This document shows positions 5,796 through 29,715 of a stretch of DNA of 48,573 nt, one piece after another; within the stretch, counting starts at the first letter, position 1, and every line of letters begins with the position of its first letter. Position numbers and translations under genes: made by a program. Where the stretch lies: NCBI GenBank assembly GCA_031406795.1, contig JANOHV010000007.1, forward strand, positions 1 to 48,573, given 5' to 3'. The notes beneath the pieces are model-generated. The model made no database searches. It was not told where the DNA came from and worked only from the letters and a program-made list of their open reading frames with translations. This stretch comes from Candidatus Rokuibacteriota bacterium (GTDB taxonomy: Bacteria > JAUVQV01 > DATDCY01).

Positions 5796-5822
5796 GATGA
5801 GCCGGCGCTGTTCGGGCGCGGC

Positions 5823-7430
5823 TCAGACGCGTCGCGCGGTGCAGAGTTCCTTGAGTTTTTCGACGATCCTGCGGGTGTGCTCGGCCCACGTGTAGCGCGC
5901 CACGACCTCGTCCCGGGCGGCTCGGCCGAGGCGCTCGCGCAGCGGTCCGTCCCCGATCAGCACGAGCAGCCCCTCGGCGAGCGAGGCGACGTCGCCCGGG
6001 CGGACCAGCCACGCCGTCTCGTCGTGATGCAGCACCTCGCCGATCTGGTCGAGGTCCGAGGCCACGATCCCCTTGCCCATGGCCATGTACTCGAACAGCT
6101 TGGTGGGGGAACCGAAAAACGGCGTTCCGTCGGCATTCGGCACGTGAGGCGCCGCCAGGATGTCGCAGGCGGCGAGGTGCGCGGGGCCCTCCTGCTGGGC
6201 GACAGAGCCGGTCAACACGCACACGTCTCCCCCCCCGAGGCGCTCGACACAGGCGCGGACAAGGGGCATCGTATTGCCGTCCCCGATCATCAACAGACGC
6301 ACGTAACCGCGCAGGTCGGGCCGCTGCTCCAGCAGCCGGCCGAACGCCTCGACGAGCACCTCGGCGCCGTGCCAGCGCCCGAAGGTGCCGATGAACCCGA
6401 TGACCGTCTTTTGCTCGAAATGGTACTTCGCCCGAATTGCGGTGCCGTCCACCGCAGGTGAATACCGCTCTGGGTCGACGCCATTGGGATTCACCAGGAT
6501 CTTGCCGGGGTCGATCCCGCGCACCTCCAACTCGTTCCTCAGCGGTTTGCTGATCACGACCACGAGGTCGGCGCTGCGAAGGTTGAGGCGCTCGATCCGA
6601 TCCGCAAGGGCCTCGTATTTCAGAGGGCTGCCCCAGTTTCGGCTCACCCAGAGCTCGGAACCGTTGTACTCCAGCACGAACGGGACACCCTTCCGGCGTG
6701 CAAGCGCCAGGCCGGCATAGTTGTTCAGCGAGTAGCGCTGATAGACGAACCCGATCGCCCTCCCCTGGAGACAGGCCTCGGCGCCCCTCAGGAAGTCGTG
6801 GTTGAAATGCAGCAGCGGCAGCTGATTGAAATCCAGGAATCTCCCGGAGGGGAGGACGATGTGGGTTTCAATTCCAGGATCCACCGTCGGGATAGCATCG
6901 GTCGTGAAAAACACGGGCGGCGCCGTGAAAGCCTCGAGATTGTTCAGCACGCCGGCGATGTGTCCGACCGAACCCCCGGCACGGAGTCCGAAAATCAGGT
7001 CGGTGCGCAGGTAGACCGGCGGCAGAGCCGCGAAGCCCATGCTGCCGAGGCACGTGCCGCAGCGCTCGAGGGCATCGAGCTCTCGACGAATCCTGGCGAA
7101 AAGCGCGGGGCGCCCCAGGAGGTCCCGGATCAGATGGGCGAACGCGCCTGCGAGAAGGGCGGTCGTCACCCTGCGGTTCACTCCCTGGTCGTCCTCGATC
7201 CAGGCCGCTCTGCGGCTGAGGAGGCGCACGAACAGCGCCGAAAGCAGCGGTCTGCTCAGCATGTCCAGCCGGTTGGTCCACAGCCGTGCCTCCTGATAGG
7301 CCAGCAGCAGCTTGAGCACCTCTCCCCGGAGGATGCGCTGGCGCAACTCCTCGAAGGGGACGATCTGCTGGCCCGGTGTCCGGGGCGGGGTACGGGCGGA
7401 GCCCCTCAGGACGATGATCTTCTGCCGCAC
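5823..7430 (-). CDS. Glycosyltransferase family 4 with N-terminal extension
   Basis: NPNGVD, GFIGTFGRWHG, FFGSPTKLFEYMAMGKGIVAS. Confidence 0.9.
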   Translation of the reverse strand: MRQKIIVLRGSARTPPRTPGQQIVPFEELRQRILRGEVLKLLLAYQEARLWTNRLDMLSRPLLSALFVRLLSRRAAWIEDDQGVNRRVTTALLAGAFAHLIRDLLGRPALFARIRRELDALERCGTCLGSMGFAALPPVYLRTDLIFGLRAGGSVGHIAGVLNNLEAFTAPPVFFTTDAIPTVDPGIETHIVLPSGRFLDFNQLPLLHFNHDFLRGAEACLQGRAIGFVYQRYSLNNYAGLALARRKGVPFVLEYNGSELWVSRNWGSPLKYEALADRIERLNLRSADLVVVISKPLRNELEVRGIDPGKILVNPNGVDPERYSPAVDGTAIRAKYHFEQKTVIGFIGTFGRWHGAEVLVEAFGRLLEQRPDLRGYVRLLMIGDGNTMPLVRACVERLGGGDVCVLTGSVAQQEGPAHLAACDILAAPHVPNADGTPFFGSPTKLFEYMAMGKGIVASDLDQIGEVLHHDETAWLVRPGDVASLAEGLLVLIGDGPLRERLGRAARDEVVARYTWAEHTRRIVEKLKELCTARRV

Positions 7431-23921: not shown

Positions 23922-24872
23922 ATGCAGAGCGAACAGTCGCACAAGATCGAGCGCATCCGTCAAAGCCTGAGTCTCGTCAAGCCGATCGTCACGCTCTCGG
24001 TCGGCGTCGTGCTCCCGGTGCTGCTCTCGACGGCGGTCGGTATCGTGGCCATCGTCGCCGGGGAAAGTTCGCTGACGTTGATCCTGGGGATCCTGATGGT
24101 TTCCTTCACCGCTGCGGCGATCGGCGGGGCGGTGATCCTCTACGTGCTGCTGGGGCGGCGCGCCCGCCTCGCGCGGCTGCAGTCCGACCTGCTGGCCAAC
24201 GTCACGCACGATCTGCGCACGCCGCTGGCCGCGATCCGGGTCTACGCCCAGACGCTGCAGACCGGTCTGCTGCGCAGCGACCCGGCGCGCGCCGAGGACT
24301 GCCTGCGGACGATCGTCCGGGAGACCGAGTGGCTGGACGCCATGATCGACCGGGTGATCAGCTGGCGGGTGGCGTCGAAAGACCGGGGACTCGTCGATCT
24401 GCGATGCGGCCCGATCCGCCCGGTGGTGGACGAGACGGCGGCGCGGTTCCTGCGGATGGTCCCCACCGACGAGGTGCAGTTGAGCTACATTTTCGAGAGC
24501 GCTCGCGATGTCCGCCACGATCCCCGCGCGCTGGAGCAGGCGCTCCTCAACCTGCTGGTCAATGCGGCCAAGTACTCCGCGGCGCCGAAGCGGATCGGCC
24601 TGCAGGTCCGCGATGAGGGAGACTGGGTGGTCGTCGCCGTGGAGGACAACGGGATCGGCATCCCCGCCGCGGAGGTCCGCCGGATCTTCGAGCCGTTCTA
24701 CCGGGTCAGCGGCGCCGGCTCCCGCGCTTCAGGGGCCGGCCTGGGACTGGCGATCGTGCACCACGCGGTGAAGGCCCACGGCGGGAAGATCATCGTCGAC
24801 ACGAAAGAAGGCGTCGGCAGCCGTTTCTCAATCTTCCTGCCGGCCTGCGCGGCGCAGGAGGGCAGCGGGTGA
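23922..24872 (+). CDS. Sensor histidine kinase (two close TM helices, intramembrane-sensing type)
   Basis: THDLRTPL, NLLVNAAKYS, DNGIGI, GAGLGLAI. Confidence 0.93.
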   Translation: MQSEQSHKIERIRQSLSLVKPIVTLSVGVVLPVLLSTAVGIVAIVAGESSLTLILGILMVSFTAAAIGGAVILYVLLGRRARLARLQSDLLANVTHDLRTPLAAIRVYAQTLQTGLLRSDPARAEDCLRTIVRETEWLDAMIDRVISWRVASKDRGLVDLRCGPIRPVVDETAARFLRMVPTDEVQLSYIFESARDVRHDPRALEQALLNLLVNAAKYSAAPKRIGLQVRDEGDWVVVAVEDNGIGIPAAEVRRIFEPFYRVSGAGSRASGAGLGLAIVHHAVKAHGGKIIVDTKEGVGSRFSIFLPACAAQEGSG

Positions 24873-25594
24873 AGCGCGGGGAGCCAGGGTCCGCGGCCGC
24901 GCCGAAGGCCCGCGGGGAGACGATCCTGGTCGTGGAGGACGACCGCTCCCTCCGCGAAGGGCTCGTGATGAACTTCGAGCTGCGCGGATACCGGGTGCTG
25001 GCCGCCGCGGAGGGGGAGACCGGCGTGCGGCTCGCCTTCGACGAGCGGCCGGACCTGATCGTGCTGGATCTGATGCTCCCCGGGTTCGACGGCTTCGAAA
25101 TCCTGTCCCAGCTGCGCGAACGGGAGATCGACGTGCCGGTGCTGATTCTTTCGGCCCGGGGCGAAGTGTCGGACAAAGTCGACGGTTTCCGGCTCGGGGC
25201 GGACGACTATGTCACGAAGCCCTTTCAACTTCCGGAACTGATCGCCCGCGTCGAAGGGATGCTGCGCCGGCGCCGGCGTCAGCGCGCGGCCCGAGACTCG
25301 ATCACTTTCGGGGAGATCGCCCTCGACCCCGCGGGCCGGACCGTGCGGCGGGCGGGGCGGGAGGTCTCGCTGCTCGCCAAGGAGTTCGACCTGCTCTACC
25401 TGCTGGCGAGCAATCCGGGACACCCTTTCAGCCGCGAGACGATCCTCGACCGCGTTTGGGGGTGGGGTTTCGACGGCACCACCCGCACGGTCGACAACTA
25501 CATCCACGCGCTGCGCCAGAAACTCGAGGCCGACCCGGCGCGGCCGCGCCACATCACGACCGTCCGCCAGATCGGCTACCGCCTCGATCCATAA
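24869..25594 (+). CDS. OmpR-family response regulator
   Basis: VVEDD, LDLMLP, GADDYVTKPF, wHTH ending TVRQIGYR. Confidence 0.93.
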   Translation: MKRGEPGSAAAPKARGETILVVEDDRSLREGLVMNFELRGYRVLAAAEGETGVRLAFDERPDLIVLDLMLPGFDGFEILSQLREREIDVPVLILSARGEVSDKVDGFRLGADDYVTKPFQLPELIARVEGMLRRRRRQRAARDSITFGEIALDPAGRTVRRAGREVSLLAKEFDLLYLLASNPGHPFSRETILDRVWGWGFDGTTRTVDNYIHALRQKLEADPARPRHITTVRQIGYRLDP

Positions 25595-25692
25595 CGGTGA
25601 GCTGCCTGCTCAGTCAGCGCCTTCATCAGGGGAAACCGATCGTGGTCTATAATCTCGACGATTGCGCAGTAAGCCTGCAGGGGGGATGGTCG

Positions 25693-25803
25693 ATGCCGGT
25701 GTACGAGTACGATCATGTCGCGAAGAAGTGCGGCGAAAACCGCATCTGGGAGATGAACAAGCCCGAAACCCGGCCGAAGCTGCGCGCGAAGACCCGGGAC
25801 TGA
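25693..25803 (+). pseudogene. FmdB-family zinc-ribbon remnant
   Basis: MPVYEY start typical of the family, but the CxxC motifs are lost; only 36 aa; GGGGGA SD. Confidence 0.45.
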
Positions 25804-25843
25804 GGACCGCAAGCGGATCGTCGTCCCCGGGATCGGCCCCGTC

Positions 25844-26134
25844 TCAGCAACAGCCGCCGCTGCCGCGTCGTCCCGGGAGCACCTCGCCGAGCCACTCGCT
25901 GATCAACCCGGCGGCGCAACCGACGCCGACATCGACTTTGATCGCTTCGACCGGGCAATTCGTCCGGCAGGCGCCGCACTCCATGCAGCGGTTGGCGTCC
26001 ACGATCTGCGCCTTGTCGTCGCTCAAAGTGAAGACCTGGTGCGGGCAGACCTCCGCGCACATGCCGCAACCGATGCACGCCTCCCGGTCCATCTGGAGTG
26101 TCGCGACATCCGGCAGGTAGGAAAAGCCCTTCAT
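25844..26134 (-). CDS. hgcB: Mercury methylation ferredoxin HgcB
   Basis: CIGCGMCAEVCP, CMECGACRTNCP, GVGCA, C-terminal CC; directly downstream of hgcA. Confidence 0.95.
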   Translation of the reverse strand: MKGFSYLPDVATLQMDREACIGCGMCAEVCPHQVFTLSDDKAQIVDANRCMECGACRTNCPVEAIKVDVGVGCAAGLISEWLGEVLPGRRGSGGCC

Positions 26135-26148
26135 TGCCCCTCCTCAGC

Positions 26149-27270
26149 TCAACGCAGCGCGGCGGCAATCCAGCAGCCGAAGCCGGCAACCAGTCCGCAG
26201 GCCATCACCGGCATCGAGAGGCGCATCTCCCGCTTCACCCCGGAGAGCGACGTGAAGGGGGTACTGCCCGTGAAGTTCAGGGCGAGGAAGGAGCTGACGG
26301 CGCTCACCAGGAGCAGGGTCGCCGCCGCCTCGAGCCCCCGCCACCCGGTGACCGCCAGGAAGGCCAGGGACCAGAGCAGCCCGACGACCGCCCCCTTGAC
26401 GGCGAAGCTGCGCGTCGGCAGCCAGGGGAGGGCCAGCGGGGTGACGATCGTGCCGGTCGCCAACGCCCCGCCATACGCCAGGACCGCCGGGATCGCGGCG
26501 GCGGGGGAAAACTGGCCGTCGCGCCAGGCCGCGGCGAGCGCGAGCGGCGGCACAATCCAGGCCGAGCCCTTGAGGGCGATGACCAGTTCGATCGGGATCA
26601 GCACCAGGCGCTCCCGCAGCGTGAAGGTCAGCTCCCGCATCCGCGGCGTCGTCTGTTGGCCGCCGTCGAGGTAGCGGGGGATATCGGCCGCCTGGATCGC
26701 GGCAAAGTGCACCGAAAACCCCGTGCGCGCGCGGATCTCGAACGCCGAAACCCCGGGCGCCCCGAGCAGCGGCAGAATCAGGCGCCGGTGCCGCACGACC
26801 CTCGCCAGGCCGGAAGTCTCGATCCGGGTGATGAGTTCCTCGCTCCCGAAGGTGCCCTTGCCGGCGGCGCACCAGACGTTGATCCCGTGCGTCTCCAGCA
26901 CGAGGAGCCAAACGTTGCGCCCGACGAGCACCGCCCTGACGAGGTCGAAGCTCATCTTGTAGTTCGCCGTGACCAGCACCGGGTCGTCGGGGGTGGGAGC
27001 GCCGAAGGCATAAAGTCCCGGGGGAACCAGGTAGGACATGCGGCCGATTCCCCAACGCGCCTTCCAGGCCCCGAGGCGGTCGGCGCGGGCGAGCGCCGGC
27101 GAGATCACCGGCACCCGGCCCGCGGGCGTCTCCAGCCAGTGCTGGAATCCCGCCACCCGCTCGTCGACCTTCCCGCTGACCGCGGGAGTCTTCGGTCCTC
27201 AGCACGGTTCCTTGTCGACGGCGGGCCCGCACGCGGCGGCCGGCGCCATCGGCAGGAACTGTTGTGTCAT
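26149..27270 (-). CDS. hgcA: Mercury methylation corrinoid protein HgcA, with in-frame UGA (probable Sec24)
   Basis: TANYKMSFD, GINVWCAAGKGTFG cap helix, C-terminal TM helices, NFTGSTPFTSLSGV; ATG 27270 is in frame through TGA at 27201-27199. Confidence 0.93.
27166..27201 (-). promoter_or_regulatory. Bacterial SECIS-like hairpin
   Basis: UGA, then GAC-UCCCGC-[GGUCA]-GCGGGA-ag-GUC; the G-initiated loop begins 17 nt after the UGA. Confidence 0.7.
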
Positions 27271-27283
27271 CGCAACGCCGTCC

Positions 27284-27751
27284 CTATTTTGCCTGGTGCA
27301 GCTGCATCCCGCACATGCAGGCGCCGGGCTTGTCCGAGAGGGTGTTGCAGCCGCAGGAACCGCCGCAGTTGCAGAAGTAAAGGCCGCTGCCCTCGAGGTT
27401 GAGCCGCTTGATCGGCTTGCCGCAGCCGCACTTGGCGTGGTCCTTCGGGTCGATCTTGCAGGTGCAGGTCGGGCCGCAGGTGCAAGCCAGCGCGGTGTTG
27501 CCCTCCGTGAAGACCACGTGGCCGCCCGCCATCTCCTTACCGCAGGTGCACTTGCCCGGCTTCAGGGATACGGTGTTGCACTTGCACTCGGGGCCGCAGG
27601 CGCACCAGTAGACAACCGACGACCCGTGCGACCCGCCCTCCATGGAACCGTGCCCCTTGTGCTTCCCCTGATGCCCCCCGCCGTGGTGGGCGCAGGCGCC
27701 GAGGACGAAGGCGGCGGCGATCAGGACGAATGCTGCTGCGAATCTCTTCAT
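27284..27751 (-). CDS. His/Cys-rich metallothionein-like lipoprotein
   Basis: Signal peptide with LGAC lipobox, His/Gly linker, nine CxC motifs in three repeats; AAGGAGG SD; stop 13 nt before the hgcA ATG. Confidence 0.85.
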   Translation of the reverse strand: MKRFAAAFVLIAAAFVLGACAHHGGGHQGKHKGHGSMEGGSHGSSVVYWCACGPECKCNTVSLKPGKCTCGKEMAGGHVVFTEGNTALACTCGPTCTCKIDPKDHAKCGCGKPIKRLNLEGSGLYFCNCGGSCGCNTLSDKPGACMCGMQLHQAK

Positions 27752-27808
27752 GGCGCTCCCTCCTTGATGGGTATCCCGGATTCGCCGGTCAGGTCGACCG
27801 ACCCCCCT

Positions 27809-27837
27809 AATGTACGGCGCGCGGCGGGGTGCGTCAA
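27809..27837 (-). promoter_or_regulatory. Sigma70 promoter of the lipoprotein-hgcA-hgcB operon
   Basis: TTGACG-17 nt-TACATT on the minus strand. Confidence 0.65.
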
Positions 27838-27853
27838 GGGCGCCGTGCAATTT

Positions 27854-27872
27854 TGGGCCTTTTTCAGCGGCC
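27854..27872. repeat. Terminal fragment of the MITE-like element at 32289-32416
   Basis: TGGGCCTTTTTCAGCGGCC is one mismatch from the reverse complement of that element's left end. Confidence 0.55.
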
Positions 27873-27874
27873 CG

Positions 27875-28201
27875 CTACCCGAACGAGCAGACATACTCGG
27901 TGATGCCGCCCTCGACCTCGATGTCGAAGGCGGAGTTGGCCGCAACCGGGAACGAGGTGCCCGCGACGTACGTTTTCCATGAACTCTCGCCCTTGAGGCG
28001 CACGCGGCAGGAGCCGGCGACGATCGCCATCACCTCGGCGGCGGCGGTGGTGAAGTTGAACGAGCCCGGATAGATCAGGCCGATCGTCTTCTTCGCGCCG
28101 TCGGCGGTGAAGACGGTGTGGCTGACCACCTTGCCCTCGAAATAGATGTTGGCCTTGGTGACGACGGAGACGCCGTCGAACTTCTCGGGTGCCTTGGACA
28201 T
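27875..28201 (-). CDS. ppnP: Pyrimidine/purine nucleoside phosphorylase (DUF1255)
   Basis: KANIYFEGKVVS, KKTIG, F.T.AAEVM, EYVCSF. Confidence 0.9.
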   Translation of the reverse strand: MSKAPEKFDGVSVVTKANIYFEGKVVSHTVFTADGAKKTIGLIYPGSFNFTTAAAEVMAIVAGSCRVRLKGESSWKTYVAGTSFPVAANSAFDIEVEGGITEYVCSFG

Positions 28202-28226
28202 TCTGCGCTCTCCCTTGCGATGGGTC

Positions 28227-29633
28227 TTACTGCTTGCGGTCCAGATGCAGGAACTCCGCGATCGCCGTCGCCGACGCCGGCAGTTCCACCGGGCGGTTCT
28301 GCAGCTCCTTCTTCGGCTCGATCTCGTATTCGGCGCTCAAGCTCCCCTCGAAGTACTTCTGCTGGAAGTCGGCGAACTTGAGCTGGTGCGCGGTGGAGTC
28401 GACGACGACCCGCATCCCCGGCTCGATCACCTTCGCCCGCAGCGCCGCGGTCAGCCCGGCGACGCCCTCGCCGCCCTGCGTGCAGATCACGTGCCCGTGG
28501 CGGTTGGCGGTGAGCATCGCGTCCATGATCTGTTGTTCGGTGACCTCGACCACGGCGAAACGCTCGCGGAAGTGCTCCTCGACGAGCCGGCGTACTTTCG
28601 GAAAGGAGACCGGGTTGCCGATCATCGCCGCCTGCGCGACGCTCGCGGTCACCCGCACCGGCTCATAGGTGCCGCGCTTCTTCCAGAGGTACACGGGATT
28701 CGCGTGGCGGCTCTGCACCCCGACGAGCAGCGGCAGCCGCCCGATCATCCCGAGGCGCTGCAGGTCGAGGAAGCCTTCCATGACCGCGGTGACGTTGCCG
28801 GCGTTGCCGATCGGCACGACCACGGCCAGGTCATCGGTTCGCCAGCCGGCGTTCATCGCCACCTCGTAGGCATAGGACTTCTGCCCGTTGATGCGCACCG
28901 GGTTCTTGGAGTTGAGCAGGAAGACCTGGTAGTCGCGCGAGAGCTCCTCGACGATGCGCATGCAGTCGTCGAAGACGCCCGGAACCTGGATGACGGTGGC
29001 CCCGCTGCCGAGCGGCTGCGAGAGCTGCTGCGGGGTCACCTTGCCGGCGGGCAGCAGCACGACCGATTTGACCGTCCCCTTGGGGAGGTAGGCGAGATAG
29101 AGCGCTGCGGCGGCCGACGTGTCGCCCGTGGAGGCGCAGATGCCGAGCACGTCGCGCACTCCCCAGCGCTTGATGGCGTGATTGAGGTACGAGATCGCCG
29201 AGGCCATGCCGCGATCCTTGAAGGAAGCCGAGGGGTTGAGCCCGTCGTATTTGATGAAGAAGGGCGCGCCGACCGCCGCGGCGAGATCGGCGTTGGCGGG
29301 TATGACCGGCGTGTGCCCCTCGCCGAGCCAGATGACGTCTTCCGGCGGCACGCAGGGGAGGATCAATTCGTGGAACCGGAAGATCCCTTGCAGCGAGGCG
29401 GGTTCGGCTGCCAGCGCCCGGTAGGCGAAAAGACGCTGCCAGAACTCCCCGCTGCGGCTCTTGAGGGACTCGAAGGCGAGATCGCGCAGCGAAAGCAGGC
29501 CGCCGCAGGCCGGGCAGGTGTAGGCGAAGCGCTCGATCGGGTGGCGGGCGGCGCACGAGACGCATTCGTAAACCACCTCGCCACGGTACGTGGGGGCAAT
29601 GGCGTCGCGGATGTCATCAGGGAAGTCGATCAT
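28227..29633 (-). CDS. thrC: Threonine synthase
   Basis: LGEGHTP, NPSASFKDRGM, CASTGDTSAA, PIGNAGN; start MIDFP after an AGGAGG SD. Confidence 0.93.
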   Translation of the reverse strand: MIDFPDDIRDAIAPTYRGEVVYECVSCAARHPIERFAYTCPACGGLLSLRDLAFESLKSRSGEFWQRLFAYRALAAEPASLQGIFRFHELILPCVPPEDVIWLGEGHTPVIPANADLAAAVGAPFFIKYDGLNPSASFKDRGMASAISYLNHAIKRWGVRDVLGICASTGDTSAAAALYLAYLPKGTVKSVVLLPAGKVTPQQLSQPLGSGATVIQVPGVFDDCMRIVEELSRDYQVFLLNSKNPVRINGQKSYAYEVAMNAGWRTDDLAVVVPIGNAGNVTAVMEGFLDLQRLGMIGRLPLLVGVQSRHANPVYLWKKRGTYEPVRVTASVAQAAMIGNPVSFPKVRRLVEEHFRERFAVVEVTEQQIMDAMLTANRHGHVICTQGGEGVAGLTAALRAKVIEPGMRVVVDSTAHQLKFADFQQKYFEGSLSAEYEIEPKKELQNRPVELPASATAIAEFLHLDRKQ

Positions 29634-29661
29634 CAACGGCTCCTCCTGTCCCAAAGTCCTA

Positions 29662-29715
29662 CGGGGTCCTGTCGCTGCGCACCGCCGGGGGCCCCCGCTT
29701 CGCGCCACCCCTTCG
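29662..29715 (-). repeat. Dispersed structured repeat, copy B
   Basis: Reverse complement matches 20784-20862 without that copy's 25-nt insert. Confidence 0.75.

Follow-up and report, generated by a model that had tools for sequence, protein, structure and literature searches.

The window analysed here, a stretch of 48,573 nucleotides (nt) from a Candidatus Rokuibacteriota bacterium (GenBank assembly GCA_031406795.1, contig JANOHV010000007.1, positions 1 to 48,573), encodes a small cysteine-rich lipoprotein, P0001, directly before hgcA and hgcB, the gene pair of mercury (Hg) methylation. On balance, we favour a reading in which P0001 is a periplasmic soft-metal binder whose modules derive from the heavy-metal-binding domain (HMBD, PF19335), and which an hgcA-hgcB cassette joined locally and late. 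The junction contains the following genes and features (pLDDT, predicted local distance difference test; SECIS, selenocysteine insertion sequence; Cys6, six-cysteine).

27284..27751, minus strand: lipoprotein gene P0001, ATG at 27751, stop codon at 27286-27284 included, 155 amino acids
27759..27765, minus strand: putative ribosome-binding site AAGGAGG, 7 nt 5′ of the ATG, read from the sequence
27809..27837, minus strand: sigma-70-like promoter site TTGACG-17 nt-TACATT, 9 of 12 matches
27692..27751, minus strand: predicted signal peptide and lipobox L-G-A-C, residues 1-20, with the lipobox at residues 17-20
27617..27691, minus strand: His-rich linker, residues 21-45, of low confidence (pLDDT below 50 at residues 22-41)
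27518..27616, minus strand: Cys6 module 1, residues 46-78, from the module alignment and a single-module AlphaFold2 model
27398..27496, minus strand: Cys6 module 2, residues 86-118, from the module alignment
27287..27385, minus strand: Cys6 module 3, residues 123-155, with the tail S-D-K-P-G-x-C-x-C-G-M-x-L
27271..27283, minus strand: spacer of 13 nt from the lipoprotein stop codon to the hgcA ATG
26149..27270, minus strand: hgcA with an N-terminal Cys-selenocysteine extension, 373 residues if the TGA is selenocysteine (NF040863)
27199..27201, minus strand: in-frame TGA taken as selenocysteine (C-U motif), immediately 3′ of a Cys codon
27166..27190, minus strand: SECIS-like hairpin with a GGUCA loop, from folding, 11-12 nt past the TGA
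25844..26134, minus strand: hgcB (NF040864)

The open reading frame (ORF) list gave P0001 as a TTG-started frame (27850-27284), but the ATG at 27751 with its ribosome-binding site is preferred. A promoter and terminator scan of window positions 25600-28400 found TTGACG-17-TACATT as the sole promoter-like site, where shuffled sequences yield 0.2, and no terminator-like site. The initial annotation, whose range 27284-27837 corresponds to the gene plus this promoter-like site, had described an exported lipoprotein of 155 amino acids with an LGAC lipobox and a His-rich linker behind a sigma70 promoter, and all of these were seen on the minus strand. Its three CxC-x3-CxC-x9-CxC repeats with 18 cysteines were likewise confirmed; counting the lipobox cysteine, P0001 contains 19 (positions 20, 50-70, 90-110 and 127-147). 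The N-terminus, consisting of M-K-R, a 13-residue hydrophobic run and L-G-A-C, has the makings of a lipoprotein signal, and the linker holds 6 His within residues 21-47; it is variable among relatives and Met/His-rich in the close ones. No twin-arginine motif occurs in the P0001 sequence. Export through the general secretory (Sec) route implies that cofactors are loaded in the periplasm, and because P0001 lacks a twin-arginine motif its cofactor would be loaded there.

P0001 belongs to a family that is conserved and unnamed. At E≤1e-3, 105 protein clusters (90% identity) and 189 representatives at 50% identity match, all called 'hypothetical protein' in their sources and free of any Pfam domain; no Pfam or NCBIfam family was found for whole P0001 or for its single modules, and an ESM Atlas search returned unnamed 'hypothetical protein' clusters only. 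Each of the 18 module cysteines is kept in 95-116 of the 116 aligned relatives, and all six Cys columns are invariant across 123 aligned module sequences. Three modules are present in 75 of the 116 aligned members, a lipobox-like motif in 74 (by a pattern of our own writing, [LVI][ASTVIG][GAS]C) and a cysteine aligned at the lipobox column in 80, while members without a lipobox still begin with a hydrophobic signal-like stretch. Given the matching clusters and representatives and the retention of the module cysteines, the P0001 gene can be taken as real and conserved, not as a chance ORF, and the earlier description of an exported, thiol-rich protein is borne out by its signal peptide, lipobox and conserved cysteines. 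The record labels of carriers are mostly those of sulfur or iron cyclers (Desulfobulbaceae, Desulfuromonadales, Thermodesulfovibrionales, Ca. Sulfobium and Ca. Sulfomarinibacteraceae). The window genome (G000) also encodes a second, more divergent three-module lipoprotein (contig C68:20452-20874, minus strand; L109 3453-3875), which scores 92 bits against the family profile, has its modules 2 and 3 spaced CxC-x2-CxC and lies among uninformative neighbours.

The AlphaFold2 model of P0001, built on 116 sequences (pLDDT 79.9, with residue blocks 41-155 averaging 82-95), predicts a beta-rich protein with a disordered tether. Foldseek against the PDB gave no match for the full model or for the single-module model, and a PDB sequence search with the family profile and module 3 gave chance matches only (E 0.16 or worse), with no metallothioneins among them. 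A structural search with the full model returned weak rows, in which 8OVL, the HMBD of LpCopA, ranked fifth of eight and fell on module 3 (Z 2.1, root-mean-square deviation (r.m.s.d.) 2.2 Å over 31 residues, 32% identity). With the single-module model (module 1, pLDDT 85), 8OVL came top among 48,161 chains (Z 2.4, r.m.s.d. 1.9 Å over 29 residues), followed by zinc ribbons at Z 2.0-2.1, so that generic ribbons lie within 0.4. By hhalign, a profile of the 123 module sequences aligned with an HMBD profile of 18 genuine PF19335 instances from the window genome and its relatives at a probability of 87% and E 3.8e-6 over 17 columns, the aligned part being the second module half, S-x2-P-G-x-C-x-C-G-M-x-L. 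The initial annotation had likened the tail to heavy-metal-binding domains, which agrees with this alignment and with the structural match, weak as its Z is. The published account of the 8OVL domain describes a rubredoxin-knuckle core in which three sulfurs bind Ag+/Cu+, with similar shifts with Hg2+ (PMC11970713). Metallothionein profiles (PF02069 and relatives) left P0001 below threshold, with only the plant PEC profile appearing at E 0.76 and 10.6 bits (cut-off 31.8). Taken together, sequence and model partly support the P0001 modules as cysteine-enriched derivatives of the HMBD knuckle that fall outside HMBD by the Pfam threshold.

The downstream genes were identified as hgcA (428 bits, NF040863, cut-off 275 bits) and hgcB (125.7 bits, NF040864, cut-off 99 bits). 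The C-TGA codon pair of hgcA also occurs in the relative L002, where synonymous differences flank the TGA on both sides, and all 7 relatives that share the gene order retain both the TGA and its GGUCA-loop hairpin. A U-A pair of the hairpin stem is C-G in L002, and the fold z-scores are weak (−0.24 and −2.13). The window genome encodes tRNA-Sec, SelA (541 bits) and a piece of SelB cut by a contig end. An N-terminal 'CU' extension of HgcA has been published, with a stated length of 363-400 residues (Haft & Gwadz 2022, bioRxiv 10.1101/2022.07.06.499078), and the 373-residue window HgcA lies within that range. The in-frame TGA thus fits a selenocysteine of the published CU type, because TGA and hairpin are conserved, coding-type changes lie on both sides, the alternative GTG start is GTC in L002, and selenocysteine genes are present. 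An HgcA start at that GTG (27156), which would leave a 127-nt gap and to which a table-11 ORF call truncates hgcA, was rejected in view of the GTC in L002 and the coding evolution on both sides of the TGA. The 13-nt gap given in the initial annotation is therefore real if hgcA starts at ATG 27270, but only with the in-frame TGA at 27201-27199 read as selenocysteine.

The spacers of the 7 same-order relatives are longer, at an estimated ~45 to 240 nt, and often contain G+C-rich hairpins; in that of L002 a T run follows a hairpin. Since the relatives' spacers are longer, the 13-nt junction is, by sequence comparison, a derived, late contraction. Two side observations concern HgcA itself. In L002 (5666-6672), hgcA is broken into three frames (ORFs 5811-6194, 6182-6517 and 6295-6672) and matches only part of the model, at just 188 bits; the cause may be assembly indels or decay of the gene. 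Elsewhere in the window genome, a weak HgcA-model match (contig C42:47457-47837, 68.5 bits, one in-frame TAG) probably reflects the acetyl-CoA pathway's corrinoid iron-sulfur protein, not a second HgcA.

To place the lipoprotein gene among its relatives, a pattern scan over one genome per species gave 139 relatives of P0001, the best 80 loci of which, distributed over 78 genomes, were kept; a metagenome scan gave 256 relatives, of which 80 loci were kept, 58 of them with at least 600 nt downstream. By tblastn, hgcA/hgcB lies beside the lipoprotein gene in 1 of the 80 genome loci, namely L002 at 84% identity. hgcA adjacency was found in 6 of the 80 metagenome loci, all with an HgcA 82-84% identical to that of the window and four with ppnP as left neighbour, and none was shown in the remaining metagenome loci. 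Five more metagenome contigs of the same lineage, carrying ppnP and the lipoprotein gene with 686 nt or more of sequence downstream, lack hgcA, and the lipoprotein gene was absent from all of 29 Nitrospirota hgcA loci searched over about ±1.5 kb (0/29). Where hgcA and the family gene share a contig elsewhere, they lie far apart (~30 kb in G344 and 335 kb in G278). Among the loci examined, hgcA adjacency is thus confined to the genus-level lineage of the window and was not found in independent lineages; the lipoprotein is not a conserved hgc operon gene.

The surroundings of the junction bear on how it arose, and contain three further features.

27875..29708, minus strand: ppnP (PF06865) and thrC (TIGR00260), upstream housekeeping genes and conserved left neighbours of the lipoprotein gene in the lineage
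23922..25594, plus strand: histidine kinase and OmpR-type response regulator, convergent, syntenic with the sister locus L001
25675..25732, plus strand: FmdB-type zinc-ribbon gene remnant, a 58-nt match to L001 5915-5974, where the gene is whole (TIGR02605)

In the sister genome L001 (78% identity), thrC, ppnP and the lipoprotein gene are present and hgcAB is absent from that place. Window and L001 are collinear on both sides of hgcAB, with ~1.55 kb of hgcAB in the window versus 440 bp with the FmdB-type gene in L001. All 6 genomes of the window's phylum have hgcA, and only 4, all of the window's genus, have the lipoprotein. hgcAB adjoins the lipoprotein gene in G000 and G001; in G002 its context is like that of window-genome contig C271 (a cassette 81% identical, with its own upstream region) and in G003 like that of window-genome contig C269 (68% identical), giving three different hgcAB sites within one genus. 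On these comparisons, hgcA and hgcB act together as a mobile cassette of two genes, which would have replaced most of the FmdB-type gene here. The positions compared are 25675-27282 in the window, 5476-5974 in L001 (the locus without hgcAB), 1871-3283 in L106 and 2823-4035 in L107.

The initial annotation had named the lipoprotein gene the first of the hgcAB operon and had held that homologs unlinked to hgc elsewhere would speak against this. In the window strain the gene does stand directly before hgcA with no terminator-like site, but the description is not general: because adjacency is lineage-restricted (1/80 genome loci, 6/80 metagenome loci, 0/29 Nitrospirota hgcA loci) and hgcAB occupies three sites within the genus, homologs are largely unlinked to hgc.

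Two metatranscriptome runs of one study contain a relative ~97% identical to the window. From them, a contig of 1213 nt (X4 record 18, matching 26561-27773 with 35 differences at depth 52.8) and a second of 865 nt (26843-27707, depth 13.2, 29 differences) run across the junction with no indels. Depth in run X4 was 0 in bin 27850-27943 and 3.6-4.1 in the ppnP bins (27944-28225). The end of X4 record 18 at 27773 lies downstream of the promoter-like site, and such contigs cannot show a transcript start. A further X4 joint, 27097 to 28026, was disregarded for its short side of 25. These contigs make it plausible that the lipoprotein gene and hgcAB are co-transcribed in the window strain from the predicted promoter.

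When all ORFs around the 80 genome loci were clustered, no universal neighbour of the lipoprotein gene was found. A block with copper chaperones recurs in 7-8 of the 80 (L011, L020, L028, L033, L042, L052, L054 and L066), in the order divergent SCO1/SenC, lipoprotein, NosL (PF05573, 68.6 and 71 bits), a 110-residue unknown, FtsX/MacB permease, ABC ATPase and a Cys-rich membrane protein, and in L033 the last five genes of the block are joined by overlapping stop and start codons. This SCO1-lipoprotein-NosL-ABC cluster (3948-9205 in L033) may represent a system by which Desulfuromonadales-type bacteria handle copper and which has gone unrecognised. Its membrane protein has ~330 residues with conserved Cys motifs and falls in no Pfam or NCBIfam family. 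Response regulators occur near the family gene in 13 loci and histidine kinases in 12; no NCBIfam model scored above cut-off for the kinase or regulator of the window, leaving the pair generic and with no metal-specific assignment.

These observations establish the gene and its family, the export signal, the conserved cysteines, the history of the local synteny and the RNA-library contigs that span the junction. From them we infer that P0001 binds metal, which metal it prefers and that it shares a transcript with hgcAB, and we somewhat favour the following account. P0001 would be Sec-exported unfolded and lipid-anchored, with its metal loaded outside the cytoplasm. Its three zinc-ribbon-like Cys6 modules would stand behind a flexible His-rich tether, with thiolate clusters that bind soft, sulfur-loving metals. 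The likeliest ligand would be Cu(I), since the modules would descend from HMBD, the tether is rich in His (in Met and His among close relatives) and SCO1 and NosL occur as neighbours; binding of Hg(II), Zn(II) and Cd(II) would also be expected. The protein may thus act as a periplasmic metal buffer or hand-off protein in anaerobes. The lipoprotein gene would have been paired with ppnP and thrC before a mobile hgcA-hgcB cassette landed downstream in one genus-level lineage; the spacer would then have shrunk to 13 nt in the window strain, and hgcAB is therefore probably read from the lipoprotein promoter.

Several points weigh against this account. PF19335 (Pfam gathering cut-off 23.6 bits) matched neither whole P0001 at E≤1 nor any of its three single modules at E≤10, with genuine HMBDs of the window genome scoring 25-56 bits; the full HMBD consensus of 18 instances, Y-x-C-P-M-H-P ... 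P-G-x-C-P-x-C-G-M-x-L, does not occur in the P0001 modules. The HMBD alignment covers the second module half only, the module knuckle is CxC, one residue short of the CPxC of HMBD, and the structural Z is only 2.1-2.4. The module cysteines could be disulfides, metal binding being deduced from sequence and model. The RNA contigs are assembled, unstranded and from one study, with DNA carry-over possible, and leave a single transcript unproven. Finally, enrichment of the family in hgcA genomes is the one result that a soft-metal binder fused locally to hgcAB fails to predict.

That enrichment was apparent at two levels. Scored at E≤1e-30, hgcA is present in 47 of the 78 carrier genomes and absent from 31; by record label, it occurs in 34 of the 36 carriers labelled as Desulfobacterota-type or coarsely as 'proteobacteria', 10 of 21 labelled Nitrospirota, 1 of 17 labelled Acidobacteriota, 2 of 2 of the window's genus (within the 80-locus set) and 0 of 2 with other labels. 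The 47/78 was rejected as striking by itself, much of it being lineage background, since 90 of 151 genomes of the Desulfobulbaceae-type order (the order of G027, labelled Desulfobulbaceae) have hgcA, 82 of them above cut-off. Within this order sample, 16 of 151 genomes carry the family, and hgcA above cut-off occurs in 15 of the 16 carriers versus 67 of 135 non-carriers (odds ratio (OR) 15, p 8e-4; without the centre genome, OR 14, p 0.0017). In a sample of 151 genomes of the Nitrospirota class containing G023 (labelled Nitrospirae), 20 carry the family and 29 have hgcA above cut-off, which divides into 15 of 20 carriers versus 14 of 131 non-carriers (OR 25, p 4e-9; OR 23 without the centre genome). 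As a control in the same class sample, HMBD, present in 58 of 151 genomes, gave no enrichment (hgcA in 10 of 58 versus 19 of 93, OR 0.8, p 0.68). These statistics ignore kinship, genome size and completeness, and carriers tend to be larger genomes. The family of G023, with only 4 genomes, is uninformative as a family-level control, and the window's phylum, with only 6 genomes, all with hgcA, offers no contrast. Eight class-sample genomes with HgcA-like matches of 133-171 bits, below cut-off, were counted as hgcA-negative; these (G248, G309, G316, G329, G347, G363, G366 and G371) are maybe HgcAB-like fusion paralogues. An HgcA tree of the 29 hgcA-positive class-sample genomes requires carrier status to change at least 6 times (mean of 10 with shuffled labels, 0.2% of shuffles reaching 6), so the link between family and hgcA is clustered, yet neither one clade nor one inherited event.

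These figures speak for the family as a functional partner of Hg methylation, a possible but doubtful explanation in which a periplasmic thiolate protein captures or buffers Hg(II) and controls its supply to HgcAB, so that the fusion in the window's lineage would reveal a pre-existing partnership. Besides the genome-level enrichment in two phyla with its negative HMBD control and the high share of hgcA among Desulfobacterota-type carriers, this would account for both genes being held by all 4 genomes of the window's genus and for the tight junction bridged by RNA-library contigs; it is also consistent with the patchy carrier status on the HgcA tree and with the response of the related LpCopA HMBD to Hg2+ (PMC11970713). 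The co-occurrence of homologs with hgcA, proposed as a check in the initial annotation, accordingly came out in part, with OR 25 and 15 versus 0.8 for the control, but 16 of 17 acidobacterial carriers are among the 31 of 78 that lack hgcA. In turn, the family is missing from most hgcA-positive genomes: from 67 of the 82 above cut-off in the order sample, from 14 of the 29 in the class sample and, within the window's phylum, from 2 of 6. Neither the family nor hgcA is necessary or sufficient for the other. Moreover, hgcA adjacency arose once, in one lineage, same-contig copies elsewhere stand tens to hundreds of kilobases apart, the recurrent neighbours are copper chaperones and not hgc genes, and the enrichment is uncorrected for phylogeny, genome size and completeness. 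An unlikely alternative dispenses with metal: the modules would be structural units stapled by disulfides, or would serve sulfur-cycling anaerobes as periplasmic carriers of polysulfide or sulfane sulfur. Conservation of all 18 cysteines fits disulfides as well as ligands, carriers are mostly labelled as sulfur or iron cyclers, and no metal-binding family scores above its curated threshold; against this, hhalign places the module tail on a metal-liganding knuckle, a metal-binding domain gives the best match in structure, the tether is His-rich and in close relatives Met/His-rich, SCO1 and NosL are neighbours, and CxC pairs are generally ill-placed for intramodule disulfide ladders. The periplasmic soft-metal binder, joined locally by hgcAB, is the simplest account and the preferred reading.

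The route by which Hg(II) passes the envelope to HgcAB has long been a question of the field. We rate as improbable, though consequential, the idea that the family provides Hg methylators with a missing step, the capture of soft metals in the periplasm, binding both Hg(II) and Cu(I) and setting the supply of HgcAB; if true, it would explain the 15-25 times enrichment in hgcA genomes in two phyla as well as the fusion into a single transcription unit. The analysis yields a conserved, exported, thiolate-rich family named by no database, a natural fusion with hgcAB that has RNA-library support, and a strong, phylogenetically uncorrected statistical link of the family to hgcA genomes in two phyla. 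Should this link survive a phylogenetic test, the family would be a candidate for envelope-level control of Hg bioavailability and a possible methylator marker gene; should it fail, the family would still represent an undescribed type of periplasmic soft-metal binder, a putative Cys6 HMBD derivative found with SCO1/NosL in anaerobe copper clusters. In keeping with the initial annotation, which knew of no such hgc accessory gene, no description of a Cys-rich lipoprotein as an hgc partner was found in the literature searched, though the supplementary files of Haft & Gwadz and the figshare tables of McDaniel could list the gene among hgc neighbours.

Among known systems, the closest is HMBD, which occurs N-terminally on Cu(I) P1B-ATPases such as LpCopA and on CusB/SilB-type adaptors. 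HMBD is a ~30-residue unit of beta-strand and knuckle, as each P0001 module is predicted to be, and the two share a tail, P-G-x-C-...-C-G-M-x-L, whereas the first half of HMBD is C-P-M-H-P and that of the P0001 modules CxC-G-x2-CxC, HMBD has three or four ligands and each P0001 module six cysteines, and HMBD is a cytosolic pump terminus while P0001 is a free-standing exported lipoprotein with three modules. Bacterial metallothioneins (SmtA/BmtA, PF02069) are likewise small and Cys-dense, with CxC motifs and presumed thiolate-cluster binding of soft metals; by contrast, P0001 is three times larger and predicted to be exported, lipid-anchored and beta-rich, and SmtA-type metallothioneins are cytosolic. 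NosL and SCO1/SenC, exported and often lipid-anchored Cu(I) handlers, resemble P0001 in place, flanking family members in 7-8 of the 80 loci, and no relation of sequence or fold to P0001 was found. The exported copper storage protein of Csp1 type is a helical bundle, whereas the P0001 model is beta-rich. The only hgc-linked gene described in the literature searched is an ArsR-like gene, reported to lie immediately upstream of hgcAB in 112 genomes and to be co-transcribed with hgcA in some strains (McDaniel 2020, PMC7438021). It is reminiscent of P0001 in its position, but the ArsR-like protein is a cytosolic regulator, whereas P0001 is a lipoprotein and no regulator, placed beside hgcA only in the lineage of the window.

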